A DNA stretch of 64,000 nucleotides from Massalongia carnosa. Taxonomy: Eukaryota. Made by a program: the position numbers and the translations under genes. The notes under the pieces were generated by a model. The model had not been told where the DNA came from and made no database searches. It worked only from the letters and a program-made list of their open reading frames with translations. This document shows, in pieces, positions 1 to 37,512 of this stretch (positions are counted from its first letter, which is position 1; every line of letters starts with the position of its first letter). The stretch lies in contig OZ287068.1 in the NCBI GenBank assembly GCA_965645245.1, positions 2,108,001 through 2,172,000 of the forward strand. The letters run 5' to 3'.

Positions 1-670
1 GTATGCTATTTACTTCAAAGGGGAGGGTTGTACAATGTCGTACTCATTTGCCCGGACAACCTTCCAGAACTAGTGAGTAATGCTAAGGCGGACTTACAAG
101 AGATGCGAGACCTCTTTGAGCATTGGGATCCCAAGCTCAAGGCGCTGCTTGGACTGGTGCAAGCGACGAGTAAATGGCGGTTGCAAAACAGCAAGGAAAT
201 GAAGAGTTGGAGGCACCCCGGTGGGAAATTCACCCTTCTTGGTGATGCTTGCCATGCCACGCTGCCTTACCTGTAGGTTCTCCTATGCCATTTTTTTACG
301 GAAATCAAATTCTGAATGTATATGCATCAGGGCTCAGGGTGCAGCTCAAGCATTGGAAGATGGAGCTGTGCTGGGTGCCCTATTTGCGCGCATCGAGCGA
401 CGATCCCAGGTCGCCGACGTCCTATGCATTTACGAGGGCCTCCGTAAGGAACGCACCACTCGTATCGTCCAAGGTAGCACTGATATACGGGATGTCTTTC
501 ATCTAGAAGATGGTGAACGACAACAGGAGCGAGATCGTCAACTGCTAAAACTGGAGCCGTTGGAGAACTGTCCGAACCGTTGGGCAGATCCCGTTTTTCA
601 GAAATGGATGTTCGGCTACGATGCAGAGAGGGAAGTAGAAGTGGCTTGGGCGAAGTATCAAGGCAGATAG
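1..670 (+). CDS. FAD-dependent monooxygenase, salicylate hydroxylase-like (3' part; 5' end outside window)
   Basis: Frame 1 open from base 1 to ...LLGDACHATLPYL; intron 273-330 (GT..AG) joins to AQGAAQALEDGAVL, giving the flavoprotein GDAxH..P..AQG...EDG motif; stop 668-670. Confidence 0.88.
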
Positions 671-1862: not shown

Positions 1863-3615
1863 ATGTCGACGCCGAGTAGGCGGCGTGGCGACATCGCTGC
1901 GCGGGCGCTACAAGAGAAGAAAAGCAGCGCAAACCTTACGAGCCGAGCAGTACGCGCAATAGCTGACATTGAAAAACAGCTACGCGACAAATCCAGAGAG
2001 ATAATTAAGGGATCAGAGATCTTGACACTGCTACAAGAAGCAAAGGAGTTGATTCACTTTCTCGCGCTTCCGGAGAGCGAGCTACGCAATGATATGCAGC
2101 TGATTCAACAGCAATTAACGCGCATAGAAGCGAACACGACTAAGACGACGGCAGCAGTCAAGAGCTACGCAATGATATGCAGCTGATTCAACAGCAATTA
2201 ACGCGCATAGAAGCGAACACGACTAAGACGACGGCAGCAGTCAAGAGCTACGCCGCGGTAGCGTCCGCGGGAAGTAGCAGAAACGACAGCAACACGACGG
2301 CGACGCGCAACTCCGTAATGGAGCAGCAACGACAGCTGGAGGAGATAAAGAGAAGAAAGTCCGTTCTGATCAAGTTCAGGAACGACGCAGAGAAAGTCGG
2401 AATCAAAGCCTTGTCGAACAAGGCACTTATGGACAGAATCAAGACTATCGAGGAGAAGACCGGCGATGTACTGGCGGTGCGACGTCTCCCAAGCGGCGAC
2501 TTGGAGCTGCTGGCGTGCACGATGGAAGCTAAGGCTAGAATGGAGATGGATCAACAGCTACATAAAGGGCTTGCGGACTCAGCGTATGTAGTGCGACGCA
2601 CATTCGCTGTGTTAGCGCATGGGTGCGCGTAGACAGCGTCGACACAGTTAACGTACAAGCTACCATCAAGAGTCTAGAGAAACAGAATGAGCAGCTTCAT
2701 CCGGGACTGCAGATCTGCCGCATTGCATGGACCAAAAGGGCAGTTTCAGAAGCCAAGATTCACTCCTCGCTAATAGTTGAAGTAGCCACCGCAGAGACGG
2801 CAAACAGACTGATTAAAGAGGGTCTTCTGCAGGATTACTCGCATAGAATATGTGAGTACTTCGATAAGAACTGTCGTCTAAAACAGTGCTTTCACTGCCA
2901 GAAGTACGGACATACGGGCACCGCATGCAAGAACGCCCTTCGATGCGCAGGCTGCGCTCAAGGACATCGCTCGCAAGCATGCAAAGCGCCTGCGGATCGA
3001 CGCAAGTGCGCCGTGTGCGGCGGGAATCATCCGGCGTGGTCTCACCTCTGCCCCGTCCGAAAAGAGGAGAAGGAGGGCCTGAATGGCATCTGGAAGAACC
3101 GACCAACGTGGCATGTCGAGACGGAGGCGGTTGTCCTTCCTCGACAAAGTCAGACAGTAGAACGACGCAATAACGCCGGCGACACGACGTCTCATACACC
3201 TGCGCCAACACGTCATCAGGCAGTGCGTGAGCGAAGCCGCTCGCCAACCCCCGAGGCCGAGGAGCCGAACGAGTTCACCCAGGACGGCTCCACGATTATG
3301 AGCCTCGACATTAATACAGTCACCAACAGCTTTCCGGCTCTCCCCTCTACACACGGCAAGAGGGCACACTCGCAGGGACCTGGAGAAGGCTCCTCGCCAT
3401 CTCCTACTAGGCGCAGAGCCAGCGTGTCGGTTGTACCTGACTCACAGCCGGCCTCGTCTTCTCATAGGTCTGACAGCGCCCTTGCACTCCTGCGTTACCC
3501 CATGCCTCCTCCGGCGCCGAAGGCGCATTCGCAGACGCAGCCACAGCCCAAGCCGAAGCGCGGCCGCCCGCCGCTTCACAGAATCAGCGGCAAAGTCTCC
3601 CGAAATACCCAGTAA
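1863..3615 (+). pseudogene. LINE ORF1 (gag-like nucleic-acid-binding protein), frameshifted
   Basis: ATG 1863; coiled-coil-like region and SYAAVA motif; knuckles CFHCQKYGHTGTAC, CAGCAQGHRSQAC, CAVCGGNHPAWSHLC; broken by an 83-bp tandem duplication (2079-2253) and a 1-bp loss near 2621-2623 (VLAHG/VRVDS). Confidence 0.9.
2079..2253 (+). repeat. 83-bp perfect tandem duplication bounded by GAGCTACGC
   Basis: GAGCTACGC at 2079-2087, 2162-2170 and 2245-2253 with identical sequence between copies. Confidence 0.95.
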
Positions 3616-6600
3616 TGGCGGGACAAACATCTCTTTCAATATTACAGTATAACATCAGAAAGAGCAAGAACGGGGTCATGACCCCTCTACTGGCGGACAA
3701 GAGAATAGAGGAGTATGACGTCTTAGCCATTCAGGAACCATGGCGCAACCCCAGCATTTGCACGTCGCACAATCCGTTCAATTCCGGCTTTCATCTTGCG
3801 TTTATGTCGAATGAGAATGTACGTGCGTGTTTCTATATTAATAAAAGATTGGATGTCAATTCTTGGGCTGTGGACTTCCTCACGCCGGACGTGTGCACAA
3901 TGAGACTAAGAATATCTGCGAGTAATGAGCCACGATACATCAATATACATAACGTCTACAGTCAATCACCCGACTCGCATTCTTCTCGCCAGCTACTCGA
4001 AAGCGTGGAGGCGGTGAGACGAAAGATTCATGAGCGGGATGAAGAGGAACACATCTTGCTGGAAGACTTTAATCTGCATCACCCTCTGTGGAGTGGCCCC
4101 TCCAGGCCTACACAACATCAAGCGGCCGACCAGCTTCTCGACGTCGTTCGTGCGGCGTCTATGCAGCTCACTCTACCTAGTGGCTCTGTCACTTGGGAGG
4201 CACGCAGATCCACGAGCACGATAGACTTAGTGTTCATGACCGACTCCCTGAGACACAGTCTGCTGCACTGTCACACCCGTCCGGAGATGAACCAATCGTC
4301 CGATCACATACCCGTCTCTACCAAGCTGACGCTAGAGGTGGAGCTGAGCGTGGAACGTCGCAAGAGAGCATGGAAGCGAGCCGACGAAGAAAATCTGGCG
4401 AAAAGTCTTCGTCTACCTGTAGTCACGGAGTGGCCGCGTACCCCGCAAGCCATAGACGACTTAGCGAATCGACTACAGTCCGCCATTATTGACGCGATAA
4501 ATGAGACCATTCCCTGGACGGCTCCCTGCCCCGTCTCCAAACCCTTCTGGAACGAGCGTTGCGCTGTCGCTGTGGCGGAGATTTGACGTCGAAGACGCGA
4601 GTGGACGAGGTGGAAGACAGAGGCAACGTGGCGCAGGTATCTCAAATCGGCGGATGAAAAGAAGAAGATCATCACCAAGGAGAAGAAGCTCGACTTCAGA
4701 AGAACCTTAGCAGAGATGACGTCTGCGTCCGAAGGCATATGGCGTCTTGCTCGATGGGCTCGTACGCGCAGTCACTTACCGCGAGACATTCCCAAGGTGC
4801 CCGATCTGACGCACACGCTTGCGGACGGCACAGCAGTCACTGCGTCCACATTCGACGAAAAGACGTCTCTTCTCTCTGACATGTTCTTCCCCAATGCAAC
4901 CGCGGCAGACCTCAGCGACACGACGACGTATCGCTACCCTCCCGCTGTCGCAGAAACGGAGTCTCTTATCACAGGCGAGGAGATAGAGGCAGCAATCAAG
5001 CGTTGTAAGCCGGACTCTGCTCCGGGCCCCGACGGAATACCGAATAGAATACTCAAGCTTCTGATCAAGTCGATACTGCCCACGTTGGTCCTTCTGTTTC
5101 GCGCCTGCGCAGAGCAGGGGTATCACCCACTCTGCTTTCGCGAGGCTCACACTATTGCAATCAAGAAGCCGAACAAGCCGAACTACACTCTCGCTAAGGC
5201 CTATAGACCTATCGCGCTTCTGAATACGCTTGGGAAGGTCTTGGAATCGATCATAGCTAAACGCATCGCCGCTATTGCGGAGACCCACAATCTGCTTCCT
5301 GAGTCTCAGATGGGAGGACGACGACAAAGATCCTGTGAAACGGCGCTTGAACTCCTCACCGAACAGATACACACGGTGTGGAACATGGGATCAGACAAAG
5401 TGGCCACGCTTTTGAGCATTGATGTGGCCGGTGCCTTTGATCACGTCTCGGCGGAGAGAATGCTGCACAATCTGCGCAAGAGAAAAATTCCTGAATGGAT
5501 CGTAGCATGGGTCGGCAGCTTTTTACCGCAAAGAAGGTCCACACTGACAATCGGCGGTCAGACGTCTTCGATGCGCCTTGTTCATGCCGGTATACCGCAG
5601 GGGTCGCCAGTGTCGCCCATTCTCTACATTTTTTACAACGCAGATATTTTGGAGGAGCTAGAGCGATCTCGACTCAAAGTCACCGCGTTGGGGTTTATTG
5701 ACGACATCAATATACTGGCATACGGCACCTCGACTGCGAGTAACTGTCGAGCTTTAGAACGTGCTCACGAGATGTGCGAGCTGTGGGCTAGACGTCATGG
5801 AGCGCACTTCGCGCCTGCTAAATACGAGCTCCTACATCTCGCCAGAAATGATCGTCGCTTCGACATGACGGCTGCCGTGTGCATAGGAGGCGTGGACAAG
5901 ACGCCTTCGCCGTCGGTGCGAGTGCTTGGAATTCAGATCGACTCCAAGCTTAAATGGGGCCCTCATCTAAAGTTCATACAGGGCAAAATGGCTACACAGA
6001 CCTTGGCATTATCCAGGCTTACGGCTTCTACGTGGGGAGCGTGCTTTACGAAGGCGAGACACGTTTATAGCGCCGTCGTGCGACCGGCGATTACCTTCGG
6101 CTCTACCGTCTGGCATTCGCCATATGGCCGTCCCGACGGCACGCAGAGGATCGACAAACAGCTCGGTGACATACAGCGAGAGTGTCTGCGAGTGATAAGC
6201 GGAGGATTTCGCGCTACTCCGCAAATCATCATCGAAGCCGAAACTCACGTTTCTCCAATTCAGCTGCATCTAGCTCACTTGCAGGCGAAGGCACGACGAC
6301 GTCTTAAAGAACATGAACACGATCAACGCATCTCCGCTTTCTGTGAGAAGATCAAGCGCAAGCTGACTGCCTCGCGCGGTAGACGACGGCGCGCCCTCAA
6401 CGCTACGCCGGCTCAGCGTAAGCGTGACTGGTATACGAGGCAGATTGCTCGAGTCCGGCCTGCTGACATGATAGAAGACACTCCGACGGACAAAGGGCTA
6501 GCCAAGATCTTCAACAATCAGTGGAAACAGACCTGGAGCGCGTATCAGGCGGCTCATCAGCGTCATCCCTGCGCTGCGCTTACTGAGGGTCTTTCGATAA

Positions 6601-6930
6601 AGAGACTGGGATTACATAAGAACTTCAGCAAATCCGAAAGCAGCCTCATCATTCAAATGCGTACTGAGCGTATTGGCTTGGCGGATTATCTCTTCTCTCG
6701 TCGAGTTCCCACGTTCGCTTCGCCGGCATGTAGCTGTGGATGGGCACGCCAGACGCAAGCATGTGCTACTCAGCTGCCCCAGGTTTGTTAACGGCCGAAG
6801 CAACATGTGCAGAGACGCCGGAACGACGGATTATCGCCGCCTTCTGACCACCGAAAAGGGCTTACGAGCCTCCGCTCGCTGGCTTATGCGGACTAATCTA
6901 CTGACACAGTTTTCGCTAGCTAAACTCTAG
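3615..6930 (+). pseudogene. LINE ORF2 (AP endonuclease-reverse transcriptase), disrupted
   Basis: APE motifs ILQYN, AIQEPW, (G>E)DFNLHH, TIDL, SDH; RT motifs APGPDGI, YRPIALLN, DVAGAFD, GIPQGSPVSP, FIDD; in-frame TGA 4584-4586; frameshift near 6755 inside CSCG...KHVLLSC; stop 6928-6930. Confidence 0.93.
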
Positions 6931-7162: not shown

Positions 7163-7918
7163 CTAAGGCTAGTCTTTTTAGTTTTAGCGCTGGTGCAAAA
7201 GGGCACGAGTAACTATATAAGTTTACGATAAGATAGCTCAGCAAATCTCGATTTTGAATAATATTTTCTTTGCCCTTTTTAAAGCTGAAATGTCTAGTCA
7301 TTCCATTCAGCTCAGCGGAAAAGCCATGCCACCTTAGATGCGAGGGCTTCATTAATAGCGAAGAACACTATGAATGGGTTGCATACATCCATTGCCTTGA
7401 GCATTGAGCATGATGCTGGTGAGCCAACGAGTAATAATACCCTCAATTATATGTAGAAGAGTTTACCATAGTTTTTGGCAAGCGCATCAAGAGTTTACAA
7501 TGATGCACAGTAGTTACTTATTTACTTGCGGGGTTTTAGGGTACAGGACACGAAGAACTTTACGTGCGGATCATGATCCCTGTCCTCAGCTTTGCAGGCA
7601 CGTGAACCAATTAATGTCATCATTAGGACCCTTATCATCATCTTAGGTTAGATCTCTTCTCTTTCCTTGTCCTTTTCGAGTTTGGACTCCCCATCAATCT
7701 GCCTTACCTCTCAGATTCCATTTCATCGTCATCCCGCAATTAATCTCAAATGGCGGGGACTTTTCCCATCCAGACGTCCTGTGTCTCCGTTTACGATACG
7801 TTTAGGAGTCATCTCAACGTCAATGGATGGTTCCTTTTCTCAAGGAATTGTCAAGATGATCGTAGCGGTTCCAATGCACGCATGACTGGCGTAATCCTTG
7901 CGACCGAAGCACATCGCG

Positions 7919-10704
7919 ATGGCGGAAACCCACGCCATCACCATGCAAAACCGAGGCCCCGTCGTACTTGCGGTCACAACAGCGCTCCTAGTCGCGTCAA
8001 CGGTGTTTGTTGTGCTCCGGCTCGCCTCGCGGATCGGAATTGTGAAAAGAGTTTCCAAAGACGATTATTTCATCATATTGGCATGGGTGAGCACAAATGC
8101 CTGAATGATTAACTCCCCAGCGTACCCAGGCTGATTGATACTAGCTAATTGCTTTTGGATTCTCTTTCTCCATATGTTACGGGACATCGATTGGTTTGGG
8201 AAGGCATGAAGCTGATATTAAGCCACAATGGCAAAGACTACTGAAAGGATTTCAGTATGCATTCTCCGTTTTATACGTACGTGGCGCTAGGCATATAATG
8301 GAGGATCGAGAGACTAATTGGTGAAGAATCCGGCTTTGATGGCGACCAAAACGTCAATCTGTCTTTTTTACCTAACGCTAGCGAAAAACCAGCAAATCTT
8401 CAAATGGTCTACCATAGCTACTTTGGCGGTTGTGAACATAGCAGGAACAGCATTGACATTCTTGAATATCTTTCAATGTCATCCTGTGACGGCCGCCTTC
8501 AAAGATCCAGTCCCGCATACAGCGCATTGTACAGATATTGTCACCATCTATCTGTCCTCAGCACCAGTCAACATCATAACCGATCTAGCGCTTTTGTTCC
8601 TTCCCATGCCAATATTAACAGCTATGAGGTTACCACGGAATGAGAAGCTGATTCTCATCGTGACGTTTAGCTTTGGAGCATTTGTTGCAGTGGTCGATGT
8701 CGTTCGAATAGCATATCTCCAGTCTGCATCGATAGCTCGCTTGCAGAATTCCACCGGATCCAGAGTACAGGATGAAGGGGACTTTTCTTGGATTGCCTCT
8801 TTATCCTTCATGTGGTCAGCCATCGAGGTCCATGTCGGTATCATTTGTGCATGTGTCCCGGGTGTTAAGCCACTTGTAAGCAAGTTGTTCCCAAACTTGC
8901 TCGGCCGTATCAAACATGCAGGAGACAGAAACAATTGTCCTTTCACTGGATCACTGGATATTCACTCGATGAACAAAGCCTATCCCCCCCGTCCTTTATC
9001 ACCCTCTTCAGGTCCATCCCAAGCTCAACCGCAATCCCCACCTGGTGGGAACAGAGATGTAGGCTTGATTGACTTTCTCACCACGCCCGAGACTACGCCG
9101 AGCATGATGAGAACCCAGACCACTATGACATCCATGGCTAAGCGGTCAAGGGCTGCTAGCCTGACGGTCTTCGACTTCGTCAACGTAAAGAACTCTAAAA
9201 GCATGGTGAGGATGAGTAATAGAGAGGCATTGGGGCCTCTTGCTGTAGTTACGGTCCTGTTTTTCCTTTGGGGGTTTGCTTATGGTCTTCTCGATGTTCT
9301 CAACTCACAGTTTCAACTCATTGTGCGTATGAGTAAAGGTCAATTGATTGGACTTCATTCGGCTTATTTTGGAGCTTACTTTGTGGGACCTTTGACATTC
9401 GGGCGAATCATTTTTCGCAAATGGGGTTTCAAAGCTACATTCATTACGGGTTTATGCATTTACGGATGTGGGACCCTTGTGTTTTGGCCATCTGCAGTGC
9501 TTGCTTCATTTCCAGCCTTTCTCATCTCAAACTTCATCGTCGGCCTAGGCGTTGCAACGCTCGAGACTGCTGGTAATCCATTCATTGCCCTTTGTGGGCC
9601 ACAAGAGTACGCAGAAGTTCGGTTAAACATCTCTCAGGCCGTCCAAGCAATAGGCACTATTTTCTCTCCGATCCTAGCCAAAAAGGTGCTATTCAAGAAT
9701 GTTTCCGATGCGCCGTCGCTGATCGACATCCAATGGACATATCTGGGGATTGCCTGTTTTGACGTTGTGCTTGCTGTTATCTTTTACTATCTGCCTCTTC
9801 CAGAGGCGTCAGACGAAGATTTGGACGAGATGGCAGAACAGCGATCCAATGCGGATAAGAGAGTAATCGGAGGGACGAAAGTTGTATACATTACACTAGC
9901 TTTCGGTGTCTTTTCGCAATTTTGTTATGTTGGTGGCCAAGAGGCTCTGTCTGGTGTTTTTCAGAAGTTTGTTGCTACGGTTAAGCCAAAGTATGTAATG
10001 AACTGGCTGTTTTCTTATGTAGGCACTAGAGCTGACTTCATGTGGCAGCGCAAGCCTTAGCCCATTCGATCATCAGGCGGTCAGCCGCTCTGTTTTTGCC
10101 ATAGGCCGATTTTTGTCGGCCCTCGGCTGTCTTATTATCAAACCGCGACACATTCTTCTCTTTCTTTTTGTTGGATTGATTGCTACGTCGATACTTTGCA
10201 TGAACCTGTCCGGCTACAGTGGCGTGGCCATGGTTATCCTAGTGCTATTCTTCGAGGTAAGAACTCAGCCGACCAGTAAAGTCCAAGAATGCTAAGTTTC
10301 TGTGTCAGTCCGGAATCTTTTCTACGACCTTTGCCATGTGTATTCGAGGTCTTGGTGCATACACTAAAACCGGATCAGTCTTCCTTACCGCGGCAACGTC
10401 TGGGGGAGCTGTGGTGCCTGCCATCATAAGTCCTGTGGCTGACGGCCGTGGTGTACGCTATGGGTTTTGCGTCATTGTAGCCTTCTTCGCCTTCGGCGCG
10501 CTCCTCCCAGTTTACACGGAGACTGTTCCAGCCGCGAAAGCGCAGGTGGATCCGGTGCGCGGACGACAGATACCTGCAGATTCTGCCCCTAGACGGCGTC
10601 GCGCCAGCCGGGTATTTCACGCGGTGATGGGGAGGAAGCAAACCTTGTCGGGATTGCCAACGACGAGACATGTTGAGGGCCAGCCCGAGGATCGAGTGCA
10701 GTGA
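7919..10704 (+). CDS. PTH11-like 7TM membrane domain fused to FucP-type (fucose/glucose-galactose) MFS permease, ~855 aa
   Basis: Exons 7919-8086, 8145-8276, 8327-9990, 10049-10256, 10309-10704, all GT..AG and frame-consistent. N-half: LRxxxR..DDY, GLGRH, KTSI, FQCHP, NIITD..LPMP, WSAIE..GIICACVP. C-half: LFFLWGFAYGLLDVLN, LETAGNPF, RLNISQ, QFCYVG. Confidence 0.88.
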
Positions 10705-11793
10705 GGCCTTCCTTGGTTTCGTACGGAGTACATATTGAAGTATTTCTTTTTTTTGCTGCGATTAAGCGTGGCGCTGGGAGGAACACGTGTTTTACCCTCC
10801 TGGAGGCGGGGTGAACCATAGAAATCACGTGGCATTGCATTCCGAAAAATATATTACCATGTGGGTATGATCATATGTCATAACTAGAGGTATACCAGAC
10901 GATAGCTGTACATGACCCCCCTATTACTCTTCCTGTGTTGATGAATATCACCGTAGGCAATCCTCTAAAGATTCACCTTTCGGGGGGGGGTTTTAAAACT
11001 TAGGACTATGAAACATTGATGTGAAATTTTCTTTCTTTCTTTCTTTCTTTTCTTTTCTTTTCTTTCATTGCTTCCTTTAAAAAGACTTTGAGATTTGAGA
11101 CGAGGCCCGTCATCGGCCCCCAATTCCGCCTTGTTCCCAAGGAACGGGCAGGGATGGCGAACCCCACAATTGTTGCGATTAACTAGCGTCACGGGGCAGT
11201 CCGACTCACAAGCCAGTCTCATATACATGTACGGAGTACAACAATGACAAATACCATAACATCATTCCCATCGTTCTGCACGAGTAACTCTGCCAGGCGC
11301 CTCCGGAGTCCTCCATTCCACTCGGTCAGACTTTCCAGCCTACGCGCTTTTCCTTGTCCCACACTCTCTCTTAGGCGCAAGATGGGAAAGACCGACAAAA
11401 CGCCGACGCTTGTTGACCCGATTCCCCGCTCGTTTGTCCGCAAGTGATTTCCTCATTCGGCCCTACCCCATACCTTAGCTTTCCTTGGCTCTCCTTGGCT
11501 GGATTAACGTAAGTTTCCCTGTCAAATGGCTGAAGATTAGATACCACGATTTCGAGTTAACCGCCTCTCCCGATCCCACGCTTTGCCGATTTCTAATCAA
11601 AACCCCTCCACACACACTCATAATTCGCTCCCCAAAGTTACCCTTCGTTCCTCCACCCCTTCCCCCCCCCCACTCATATCCCTCGTCACTCAACTTCTCC
11701 TCTCCTCTCCTCTCTTCACCTTCACCTCGCGTTCGGTCCAAACTCAATTAACAGTCGTACCATCGATCTATCAAATCTCTTTCGCTAGCAGCC

Positions 11794-12742
11794 ATGGCCG
11801 GCTTTTATGGTCGCAGAACGCCTAATGTGTCTCAATACATTGCAAACCTGAACGCCATTAACCCGTCGTCTCAAGACGTGGCGACACAGCACGACGATAG
11901 CTACGGCCTTGAGGATGACCTCGCTGTCTTTACCAATGCCGAGTTTTTCGACTTCGACTTGGGTGATGGGATTGAACAGCCCCCAATCAGCTATGATCCG
12001 TCGCACGAGGAGCGTGCAAGAAGGGAGCACGCCTCGGCGCATAAGAATGGCCATAAGATCGATTTTATAAATGGTAAGTGGAACTTAGTACTAGTAGTCT
12101 TAAAGGTCTTACAGTTCAAGCGACCATAATCGCGCGCTCTTCAAGACATTCATACATCTCCCAACGGCGGCTAGTTGCACGGCTGACATGCTTCGCCCAG
12201 AAAACTACACCTTTCCCAGCCTCCCACCTTTCATCGCCACAACTCAAGCCACCTCCATCGAGTCCAGCTACCGACCACCCCAAGCCTTTGCGACCACCAC
12301 CCCACCGTCTCCCTTTATCTACCCGGCTCCTCCATCTATCACAACCAACATAAATCCATCGAATCACGTGCCACTCATGAGTCCCACCACCACGACGAAC
12401 CCTAGCACCCCCACTTCCCCCTCGCCCTCGCATTTTGCTGCCGAAGAAGACAAGCGTCGACGGAATACAGCTGCATCCGCGCGTTTCCGCGTCAAGAAGA
12501 AGCAGCGTGAACAGGCACTTGAGCGCATGGCAAAGGAGCTCAGTGACAAGGCAAAGGAGCTGGAGAAGCGCGTTGGGCAGTTGGAGACGGAGAACGAGTG
12601 GCTGAGGGGTTTGGTGGTCGAACGGAATGGAGGAGCCGGCTTGGATGCGATGGTCAAGGATCGCGAGGCTGTGGCAGAGAAGAATCGGAGGGAGAAAGAG
12701 AGGAAGAAGGGCGTGGGTACGAGTACAGTAGAAGCAGCCTAG
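11794..12742 (+). CDS. metR: bZIP sulfur-metabolism transcription factor (MetR/CYS-3 family)
   Basis: Exons 11794-12073 and 12201-12742; N-terminal PNVSQYIANLN and DLAVFTNAEFFDFD blocks; basic region AAEEDKRRRNTAASARFRVKKKQREQALE plus leucine zipper ending LETENEWLRGLV. Confidence 0.88.
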
Positions 12743-13382: not shown

Positions 13383-14317
13383 ATGGTTAGTAGCTCCATC
13401 GAAGAACTATCCTCATCTGAACAAAATGGTGCAAAACCACGCAAGGGGAAATGGTTGCGGCGTCACCTCGAAGCAGAGATTAACACACTACATTCGGAGT
13501 GGCTGCTGATCCTCTGCTGTTTGATTTCGGGCTTGGTTGACAGCACAATCTACAATGGTAGGGATTTTGCGTCAGATGATATTCCACGGATGCGCTGACG
13601 CATGGATATCTTATCAGCTTACGGAACATTTGTGTCGATGCAAACTGGTAATGTCATTGGACTTGATTCAAAAGCTCTTTCGCGCGACAGCGTACTAAAT
13701 TATATCAAGGTAACACCATATTCGTCGGCCTGGGCAGCTCCATTAGTCACCATACTAACAAACCTTACGGATGGGCAAAATCCCTCACCTCCATCGGCTG
13801 CTTCATCCTTGGTGCTTTCTTCTTCTCTCGTTTCTGCCGCTATCTAGGCCCCCTCCGCCGTGGCACTCTTGCTGCGTCCTTTTTGCTCCAATCCACCTTC
13901 ATCATTGTTACGGCCACCATCATCCAAGCTGGCGTGCTCGATGGATCCTCTCCAAGGGCCTTGGGCGATATCGACTGGAAGGAGGAGATCCCAATCGCGC
14001 TGTTAAGCTTTCAATCTGCGGGACAGATGGTGGGGAGCAGAATACTGAACATAAGCGAAATCCCGACAGTGGTGGTGACCAGCGTCCTGTGCGACTTCGC
14101 TTCCGACCCAAACCTAACCGACCCGCTGCTGGCGAATGCCAGGAGGAACCGTAGGGCGCTTGCCTTTCTGGGGATTCTTGTCGGCGCGGTGGCAGGTGGT
14201 TGGATTTCCAAAGCAGCAGGCGAGATCCAAAGTGTCTTGTGGCTCGCTGGAGGGATGAAAATCCTCATAACGGGATTCTGGATGCTCTGGCCTCAAGAGT
14301 TGATTACTGTTGTTTGA
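13383..14317 (+). CDS. DUF1275 (YoaK-like) membrane protein
   Basis: Exons 13383-13557, 13618-13647, 13710-14317; spliced motif SGLVDS..YGTFVSMQTGNT, later LLSFQSAGQ and IPTVVVTS; several hydrophobic helices. Confidence 0.85.
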
Positions 14318-36408: not shown

Positions 36409-37512
36409 TCACTCCAAAGCAGGCGTGTCGACAAAAAACAAACTCGACATAGCCTCCGGATACCTCCCCCCCGTGAACCTCCGTGTCCTCAACCGCCTTC
36501 CGAATCTCCTTTTCTTACTCCGCCGTCAACTGCACTTGCAACGCCACCCAATTCTCCTCTAAATACTTGATCTTCTTCGTCCCCGGAATCGGGATCACGT
36601 CGTCCCCTTGCGCCAACAGCCACGCCAATGTCAACTGCCCCGTCGTGCATCCCTTCTTTCGGGCAAACTCCCCGAGCTGGTCCACGAACCGCAGGTTCTT
36701 GGAGAAATTCTCCTCTGAAAACCGCGGGCCATACAGCCGGAAATCTCCTTCCTCGAAGTCCGCTCGTGACTTGTGTTGGCCTGTGATGAAGCCGCGTCCA
36801 AGAGGGCTGTAGGCTACCGTGGCGACGCCAAGCTCGCGGTAGGTTTTCAGCAACGCGATGCGGGGGTCTTCGATGTCGAGGATAAAAGGGCTATATTCGA
36901 TTTGCACGGCCGTGATGGGATGGACTTTGTGGGCGCAGCGGAGCGTTTCCGACGAGACTTCGCTGAGGCCGAGATAGTTGATTTCCCCCTCCCTGTTACG
37001 TTATTTAGTCTAGATCGGTGGTGATGGCACACGATGGCTCCTTGAAGAAACGAGGAAACCAAACCCACTTCTTCAATTCAGCCATTGCCTACACCGTCTT
37101 CTCCACCAGCGTCTTCCCGTCCACCCGATGGCAGTAGTACAGATCAATCGTCTCCACGCCCAACCTCTTCAGGCTCGCGGCGCAGGCCGCTTTCGCGTGC
37201 TCAGGATTGCTCCTTACCGTCCTCGTCCCGTCGGCAAGCCAGACGTTGGCGAGCTTGTTGGCAAGGAAGATCTCCTTGCGCTTGCCTGTTCGCTGGAACC
37301 ATTTACCGATTAGATCTTCGCTGTCGCCGTACACGTCCGCGCTGTCCCAGAAATTTTGTCCTAGCTCGTAGGCACGGTCGAGGACTTTGAAGTGCTCCTC
37401 GTCCGACTCCAGCGCGCCGTAAAAGGCCGAGAGACCCATGGCTCCGAACCCGAGGGCGGTCACGTAAGGGCCATCTTTCCCGAGTTGACGTTTTGGCACC
37501 TGGGGAGACTAT
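36409..37512 (-). pseudogene. Aldo-keto reductase (YakC-like), disabled
   Basis: [66 protein letters not shown]; in-frame stops at 37089-37091 and 36515-36517; start reads ATAG-TCT-CCC instead of ATG-TCT-CCC; intron ~36993-37068. Confidence 0.88.

Follow-up and report, generated by a model that had tools for sequence, protein, structure and literature searches.

A conserved fungal gene predicted to join a Pth11-like seven-transmembrane domain to a FucP-like permease in Massalongia carnosa

Introduction

In the transceptors and nutrient sensors of yeast the transporter fold itself signals, sometimes via a long tail, and Snf3 and Rgt2 provide a precedent for an MFS fold that serves as a non-transporting sensor. 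To our knowledge, none of Gap1, Pho84, Mep2, Snf3 and Rgt2 carries a separate seven-transmembrane (7TM) receptor-like domain. In filamentous ascomycetes no receptor-like family is larger than that of the Pth11-like proteins, nearly all of which are orphans. Human LYCHOS (GPR155) combines a PIN-like transporter with a domain resembling G-protein-coupled receptors (GPCRs), and is called a 'transceptor' in the abstract of a preprint. Here we describe a gene of Massalongia carnosa, located at positions 7919-10704 on the forward strand of a 64,000-nucleotide stretch of the genome (GenBank assembly GCA_965645245.1, contig OZ287068.1, positions 2,108,001 to 2,172,000), the whole of which is referred to below as the window. 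The locus is a single genuine gene, and its product is a hybrid membrane protein with 19 predicted helices, in which a Pth11-like 7TM domain is followed, on the same polypeptide, by a permease that resembles FucP of Escherichia coli.

For the class XIV receptors, Pth11 and the Pth11-like proteins, a 2026 review (PMC13308352) lists CFEM and the domain found in the N-terminal half, PF20684 (Fung_rhodopsin), and a preprint on Peltigera equates the InterPro 'Rhodopsin domain' with class XIV (10.64898/2026.06.16.732702). For the C-terminal half the closest characterized protein is FucP, whose active transport of fucose depends critically on Asp46, Glu135 and Asn162 according to two papers (PMC3417520, PMC3824880). 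An initial annotation of the window had read the gene as a receptor domain fused in frame to a FucP-type sugar permease, and several of its claims are revisited here.

Gene structure and protein architecture

The gene model was obtained by reading positions 7600-10900 together with a list of stop-to-stop open reading frames (ORFs), and its coding sequence (CDS) was checked by script. The gene is composed of five exons (Table 1), separated by four introns of 58, 50, 58 and 52 nucleotides (nt) that are all of the GT..AG type and contain branch-point-like CTAAT/CTGAC boxes. The CDS of 2568 nt has no internal stop and is translated into 855 amino acids (aa), of which residues 1-852 align end to end with the 854-aa homologue P0002 at 77% identity, without gaps at the exon junctions. 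Identity to a Pseudocyphellaria aurata protein of 850 aa is 75%. The coordinates, the limits of exon 3 and the length of about 855 aa given in the initial annotation were therefore exact.

The physical union of the two halves can be read within exon 3. Its coding frame is free of stops, versus 39 and 15 stops in the other two frames, and its translation alone (554 aa) matches PF20684 at residues 3-186 (E-value 1.1e-43) and PF07690 (MFS_1) at residues 311-532 (E-value 1.1e-13). Given this single open frame and the two Pfam matches, the end of the receptor half, a linker of about 100 aa rich in proline, serine and threonine, and the start of the MFS half all lie in this exon, as had been claimed; the two matches occupy separate stretches, which is the pair of non-overlapping membrane domains that the profile search, named beforehand, was expected to return. 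The AlphaFold2 model of P0002, with a mean predicted local distance difference test (pLDDT) score of 78.7, displays twelve helices after the linker, and seven long helices are predicted in the 7TM part of this model as well as in that of a second family member, P0234. The sum agrees with the earlier estimate of up to about 19 transmembrane (TM) helices.

Distribution and conservation of the fusion

To describe the spread of the fusion we compared exon 3 and its homologues in protein and metagenome collections. Both Pfam domains are present in all of the best 120 among 2889 matches of exon 3 at E-value <= 0.001, and the lichen-forming fungi Pseudocyphellaria, Pseudevernia, Alectoria, Psora, Lecanora, Dirinaria and Caloplaca are named among these 120. 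An exhaustive search of cluster representatives at 50% identity yielded 263 proteins at E-value <= 1e-30. Among the best 150 such representatives by blastp, 82 bear both halves, whereas 49 have the MFS half alone and 19 the 7TM half alone; many of the single-half sequences turned out on inspection to be fragments, ending in the FDFVN/FFLW stretch or beginning in TM7 or at DFLTTP. Both families are also present in ESM Atlas clusters of 60, 97 and 184 members, and the gene models of fused proteins from several NCBI genomes measure 786-1009 aa. A scan of metagenome DNA detected 80 loci, or 57 groups when clustered at 90% identity. The path from TM7 to TM1 of the MFS half is one open frame of 139-214 codons in 78 of these 80 loci, and the other two end before both anchor positions. 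The fusion is thus real and conserved and is not private to the Massalongia carnosa window, and the statement of the initial annotation that it is no gene-merging artefact was borne out by the open frame in the window, by the 78 loci and by the 120 best matches alike.

Names were looked up for 30 representatives and place fused members in five classes. Besides Lecanoromycetes, these are Eurotiomycetes (Penicillium ucsense, P. diatomitis, P. canescens, Aspergillus mulundensis, A. multicolor, Talaromyces atroroseus and Microsporum spp.), Leotiomycetes (Halenospora, Tricladium and Pseudogymnoascus), Sordariomycetes (Hirsutella, Lasiosphaeria and Chaetomium) and Tremellomycetes (Papiliotrema laurentii, Kwoniella pini, Kwoniella sp., Cryptococcus depauperatus, Cryptotrichosporon argae and a metagenome-assembled genome of Tremellales). 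Three Tremellomycete proteins were checked against Pfam and have both domains. A preprint describes Pth11-related GPCRs as found solely in Pezizomycotina, and the initial annotation had likewise confined the Pth11-like domain to that group; this view has to be given up, since fused PF20684 members occur in Tremellomycetes. The Tremellomycete fused proteins in which Fung_rhodopsin was observed are P0293, P0155, P0167, P0149, P0163 and P0148.

Conservation along the protein was measured on an alignment of 51 fused proteins, picked from 297 as apparently full length. The mean fraction of the most frequent residue is 0.60 in the 7TM half, 0.57 in the MFS half and 0.31 in the linker. We also built a tree of the MFS half with 50 rows, comprising the window protein, 46 fused proteins and three stand-alone proteins as outgroup. 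Its clades track taxonomy, with the Lecanoromycetes (support 99), a set including the named Sordariomycetes (100) and the Tremellomycetes (100) each grouped together, and the window protein falls with P0002 and Pseudocyphellaria (98). The Tremellomycete clade is placed in an open polytomy with the groups of Pezizomycotina. A single origin of the fusion is plausible and cannot be put more strongly, because the split between fused and stand-alone proteins is weakly supported (64).

The receptor-like half

The translation of exon 3 alone reaches 149.9 bits with PF20684, far above the gathering cut-off of 27, and the full-length homologue P0002 reaches 201.8 bits (E-value 1.5e-59), covering model positions 1-236 of 237. 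The Pth11-type character of the N-terminal half, one of the points on which the initial annotation had staked its reading, was in this way confirmed. No Pfam match to CFEM (PF05730) was found in exon 1, 2 or 3, and only about 12 residues precede TM1. Because of this missing CFEM match, we classify the half, on sequence grounds, as Pth11-like and not as an orthologue of Pth11.

To compare folds we used an AlphaFold2 model of a natural 7TM-plus-linker fragment, that of P0234 (423 aa, 54-row alignment), which has a mean pLDDT of 78.9. A VIA-align comparison with 48,161 chains gave the fungal pheromone receptor Ste2 as the best match (7ad3_B, Z 18.1, root-mean-square deviation 4.0 over 251 residues). 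The runner-up, TAS2R14, lies 2.4 Z lower (Z 15.7) and the further rows are nearly all GPCRs, at Z 12.5-15.7, values to be read against the Z of about 13-14 that helical bundles reach through arrangement alone. The model supports a GPCR-like fold of the 7TM half and nothing beyond the fold.

The charges of the loops are informative about orientation. The loops between TM1 and TM2 and between TM5 and TM6 and the segment after TM7 are rich in lysine and arginine and all lie on the same, cytoplasmic side, and a pair of cysteines is conserved in the loop between TM4 and TM5. The pattern fits a predicted topology in which the N-terminus is outside and the C-terminus is cytoplasmic. Such a topology would leave the linker in the cytoplasm, where the N-terminus of an MFS protein must be, so that the fusion is topologically sound.

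The linker

Proline, serine and threonine make up 34% of the linker, compared with 19% of the whole protein. The coding frame crosses it without a stop, versus 9 and 4 stops in the other frames, and its sequence is unlike an intergenic spacer. It holds two conserved motifs. The first follows the pattern [ML]-x-[DE]-F-L-T-x-P across classes, including Tremellomycetes, and the second, which adjoins the permease, the pattern F-[FG]-[DG]-F-V-N-x(3,4)-K-S-M-x(3)-N-x-E-S. Neither DFLTTP nor FDFVN was found in the N-termini of the stand-alone fucose:H+ symporter (FHS) proteins of Mycena that we inspected. A third element, RSRAAS, matches the basic-kinase pattern RxRxxS, and would at most be a putative phosphorylation site.

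The two halves may also touch each other. The whole P0002 model has a predicted template modelling score (pTM) of 0.76 despite 144 of its 854 residues having a pLDDT below 50, and, because such a value would be hard to reach otherwise, the two membrane domains appear to be confidently placed against each other in the model.

The permease half

Among the NCBIfam models, fucP (TIGR00885) is the best match of exon 3 (E-value 1.2e-34), followed by PRK10133, NagP and gluP, and in full-length homologues positions 4-394 of the 410 of the fucP model are covered. In phmmer searches of the PDB, E. coli FucP (3o7q) is the sole match of exon 3 (E-value 2.1e-29), and the same entry is matched by P0002 over FucP residues 21-410 (E-value 4.1e-36). 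Foldseek on the P0002 model also places FucP (3o7p/3o7q) first, with an E-value of 1.8e-13 and a TM-score on the target of 0.79. MFS_1 scores above its Pfam cut-off, and the predicted 12-helix MFS fold is closest to FHS members. Sequence and model comparisons thus place the C-terminal half in the FHS branch of the MFS, where it appears FucP-like but not a FucP equivalog.

The residues of FucP find counterparts in the window protein. Asp46 and Glu135 are aligned with D423 and E513, and W38 and Q159 of FucP are paired with identical residues. The E135 column holds glutamate in 46 of the 51 fused members. A further acidic residue is E724 of the FFES motif, whose column holds glutamate in 40 of 51 and which the stand-alone permeases of Mycena have as well.

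Among Lecanoromycete orthologues that are 65-87% identical, the residue aligned with D46 (residue 419 of P0002, D423 of the window protein) flips between Asp, Gln and Ser, and the E135 position stays Glu. Such flips may represent repeated changes of coupling mode.

Possible functions of the fused protein

Our preferred reading, held tentatively and with a little less than even confidence, is that the MFS half is an FHS-type transporter and that the 7TM half acts in cis on the permease, G-protein signalling being left aside. The permease would move a small neutral sugar or a sugar-like solute. In Massalongia carnosa this transport would probably be proton-coupled, because acidic residues of the D46, E135 and FFES types are all present. 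The 7TM half would be a built-in regulatory or sensing module lying beside the permease in the membrane, and, together with the linker motifs, could control the activity, stability or trafficking of the permease.

Several results weigh against this reading. The score with TIGR00885, whose cut-off is 280.4 bits, is 120 bits for exon 3 alone and 159-169 bits for full-length homologues, and the latter reach 132-145 bits with the second FucP equivalog, NF007524 (cut-off 427); the window protein was scored exon by exon, so the full-length values are those of homologues. Below these cut-offs, fucose, another sugar and a polyol are indistinguishable as the substrate, and of the FucP-type sugar permease announced in the initial annotation it is the likeness to FucP by NCBIfam, PDB and Foldseek that stands, not the equivalence. 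FucP N162 corresponds to Gln540 of the window protein, and Y365 to Phe in P0002. The D46 column holds Asp in 15, Asn in 13, Ser in 7, Gly in 6 and Gln in 5 of the 51 fused members, with other residues in the rest. The acidic residues that had been pointed out at the D46 and E135 equivalents do align in the window protein, but with Asp in only 15 of 51 proton coupling via the D46 site is not a family feature. As to the 7TM half, Foldseek returned no match of the P0234 7TM model at E-value <= 0.001, and the similarity to the helical bundle of Ste2 would show fold and not function. The suggested contact between the domains comes from a single pTM value, unaccompanied by predicted aligned error or coordinates. 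A search for sequencing runs listed none of RNA, and the four runs compared with the gene proved to be genomic contigs that retain the introns and have no splice joints. Finally, our literature search found no transport, binding or signalling data for any member of the family.

A true transceptor, the idea put forward in the initial annotation, is the strongest rival, although on balance we consider it rather doubtful. The Pth11-like domain would sense an extracellular ligand or the state of the permease and signal via heterotrimeric G proteins, regulators of G-protein signalling and cyclic AMP, while the MFS half would import the same or a related sugar. The GPCR-like fold with Ste2 as best match, a 7TM half conserved as much as the permease and the conserved linker motifs are all consistent with it, as is the listing of PF20684 for class XIV Pth11 and Pth11-like GPCRs in the review cited above (PMC13308352); LYCHOS/GPR155 shows that hybrids of transporter and GPCR exist. 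On the other side, no CFEM or other extracellular ligand-binding domain was found by Pfam in exons 1-3. Coupling to G proteins is documented for Pth11 itself, but is not known for the many Pth11-like proteins.

A bolder form of the receptor idea, which we regard as unlikely, would make the fusion an old fungal counterpart of LYCHOS across Dikarya, in which the occupancy or cycling of the FHS permease is read by the Pth11-like 7TM half and relayed to G proteins and cyclic AMP via the DFLTTP and FDFVN motifs. If that were true, the lichen-fungal protein could both report and import a sugar derived from the photobiont, and the repeated loss of the D46 site would mark lineages moving from uptake to sensing. 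In the preprint on Peltigera, the photobiont layer is the one part of the thallus from which fucose is reported (10.64898/2026.06.16.732702).

A non-transporting sensor, in which the MFS half has turned into a ligand-binding receptor domain and the whole protein is a receptor, seems more unlikely still. The same Asp count at the D46 site, the replacement of FucP N162 and Y365 and the scores under the transporter equivalog cut-offs would suit it; however, D423, E513 and E724 are all kept in the window protein, 46 of the 51 members have the E135 equivalent, the core of the MFS half is well conserved, and loss of D46 fits facilitated diffusion equally well. Two products from the locus or a gene-model artefact, with a promoter, a polyadenylation site or an unrecognised intron inside the linker, is a highly improbable explanation for which Met codons in the linker (aa 358-359) could be cited, and against which stand the open frame over the boundary in the metagenome loci, the stops in the other linker frames, the conserved peptide motifs of the linker and the NCBI gene models, which predict fused proteins.

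Genomic context

The coordinates of the exons, of the residues and motifs discussed above and of the neighbouring genes are given in Table 1. Downstream, the fused gene is followed by genes for a bZIP transcription factor and for a DUF1275 membrane protein. Upstream lies a retroelement resembling long interspersed nuclear elements (LINEs), without long terminal repeats (non-LTR), and at the edge of the window a gene similar to monooxygenases dependent on flavin adenine dinucleotide (FAD). The latter shares 78% identity with a gene that neighbours the fused gene on its upstream side at related loci of lichen fungi, so the upstream synteny is partly kept, with the retroelement between the monooxygenase-like and the fused genes. 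A sugar-catabolic cluster was looked for at the locus and rejected, the neighbours being instead the retroelement and the bZIP and DUF1275 genes.

Table 1. Positions in the window of the fused gene, its sequence features and the neighbouring genes
Feature	Position	Strand	Description
Exon 1	7919..8086	+	ATG at 7919; donor GTGAGC at 8087; short extracellular N-terminus, TM1 and start of TM2 (aa 1-56); junction gap-free against P0002
Exon 2	8145..8276	+	acceptor AG at 8143-8144, donor GTACGT at 8277; remainder of TM2, first extracellular loop and beginning of TM3 (aa 57-100); P0002 alignment
Exon 3	8327..9990	+	single open frame: TM3-TM7 of the 7TM half, linker, MFS TM1-TM6 and start of TM7 (aa 101-655)
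Exon 4	10049..10256	+	MFS TM7-TM10 region (aa 655-724); last codon is E724 of the FFES motif
Exon 5	10309..10704	+	MFS TM10-TM12, basic C-terminal tail of about 55 aa; stop TGA at 10702-10704; NCBIfam gluP, fucP and NagP match C-terminal parts; P0002 alignment
Linker, 99 aa (aa 297-395)	8915..9211	+	predicted cytoplasmic and disordered; 34% P/S/T; pLDDT < 50 at the equivalent P0002 residues 295-383
Linker motif 1, DFLTTPE (aa 349-355)	9071..9091	+	columns F 67%, L 67%, P 90% (51 sequences); in other fungal classes too
RSRAAS (aa 373-378)	9143..9160	+	partly conserved: window and several Lecanoromycete orthologues
Linker motif 2, FDFVN..KSM..NRE (aa 382-400)	9170..9226	+	adjoins MFS TM1; columns F 94%, V 78%, F 76%, K 63%; in Tremellomycetes too
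D423 codon	9293..9295	+	aligned with FucP D46 (phmmer, 3o7q)
E513 codon	9563..9565	+	aligned with FucP E135 (phmmer, 3o7q)
bZIP transcription-factor gene	11752..12742	+	bZIP_2, E-value 2.9e-10
DUF1275 membrane-protein gene	13667..14317	+	E-value 5.3e-27
FAD-dependent monooxygenase-like gene	1..273 and 203..670	+	window begins inside the gene
LINE-like non-LTR retroelement	2566..6791	+	about 1.1 kb upstream of the fused gene, same strand
Retroelement ORF1	2566..3615		Cys-rich knuckle-like motifs
Retroelement endonuclease ORF	3474..4586		Pfam Exo_endo_phos_2
Retroelement RVT_1 ORF	4587..6791		same frame as the endonuclease ORF, one stop codon between them
AKR13-type gene	36431..37505	-	window orthologue, 26 kb from the fused gene, 65-68% identity

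A single gene recurs close to the fused gene across the related loci, and it encodes an AKR13-type aldo-keto reductase, whose best PDB match is perakine reductase (E-value 8e-75). In seven of the 27 groups with at least 1.5 kb of downstream sequence it follows the fused gene on the same strand at less than 2 kb, and these seven belong to diverse lineages (L005, the L009/L017 group, L013, L014, the L020/L022 group, L040 and L042); anywhere in the locus, it is present in 10 of 57 groups. As a pointer to the substrate the gene was rejected, being neither specific for sugars nor close to the fused gene in the window, and it is a lead only.

Significance

The architecture is real and appears ancient. 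However, NCBI, UniProt and the ESM Atlas already contain the family under automatically assigned names, and it is not special to the genome of Massalongia carnosa, two facts that limit its significance. Homologues are labelled 'L-fucose permease', 'MFS-type L-fucose-proton symporter', 'putative MFS monosaccharide transporter' or 'Rhodopsin domain-containing protein', much as the initial annotation had suspected when it suggested that they might sit in databases as fucose permeases. The same annotation knew of no functional description of the architecture, and our literature search, with subscription journals and bioRxiv supplements outside it, found no paper in which a Pth11-like domain is joined to an FHS permease.

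The fusion would be the second, independent joining of a transporter and a GPCR-like bundle after LYCHOS/GPR155. A permease-linked subfamily offers a built-in hint at the ligand or partner of a Pth11-like domain, and hence a tractable way into the function of such domains. For lichen biology, the protein is a candidate for taking up or sensing carbohydrates where the fungus meets its photobiont.

Comparison with known systems

Among the proteins considered here, FucP (PDB 3O7Q/3O7P) is the closest to the permease half, being the best PDB match in both sequence and structure, with a 12-helix MFS fold and with W38, D46, E135 and Q159 matched by W, D423, E513 and Q. It differs in its identity of about 25%, in the scores under both equivalog cut-offs, in the change of N162 to Gln and of Y365 to Phe and in the TM1 pocket, which reads ANNLND in FucP and AYGLLD in the window protein; the latter also adds a 7TM-plus-linker extension of 395 aa. 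The stand-alone fungal FHS permeases (about 480 aa in Mycena spp. and 515 aa in Drechslerella) belong to the same MFS subfamily, share the LLD.LN, LETAANP and FFES motifs and have fucP as their best NCBIfam model, but they are devoid of PF20684, and the MFS tree places them outside the fused proteins, with weak support (64).

The N-terminal half resembles Pth11 of Magnaporthe oryzae and the Pth11-like proteins in PF20684, in seven helices, in an N-terminus predicted to be outside by the positive-inside pattern and in a GPCR-like fold. Pth11 itself bears CFEM (PF05730), whereas the window protein has none, and the predicted cytoplasmic tail of the latter runs into a 12-helix permease. Gap1, Pho84, Mep2 and Snf3/Rgt2 of yeast also tie a transporter fold to nutrient signalling, according to a review of the subject (PMC3824880).

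The likeness to human LYCHOS/GPR155 is one of concept and not of family, since both place a transporter fold and a GPCR-like 7TM bundle on one polypeptide. The two are non-homologous. In LYCHOS a PIN-type transporter is N-terminal to the GPCR domain, a DEP domain is present and the helices number 17, whereas in the window protein the 7TM half comes first, the transporter is of the MFS type and 19 helices are predicted; no Pfam match to PIN (Mem_trans) or DEP was detected in it, PF20684 and PF07690 being the only domains found. Within the literature searched, the fused protein is new as a described system, and the nearest described concept is LYCHOS/GPR155, with which it shares no sequence relationship and whose domains stand in the opposite order.

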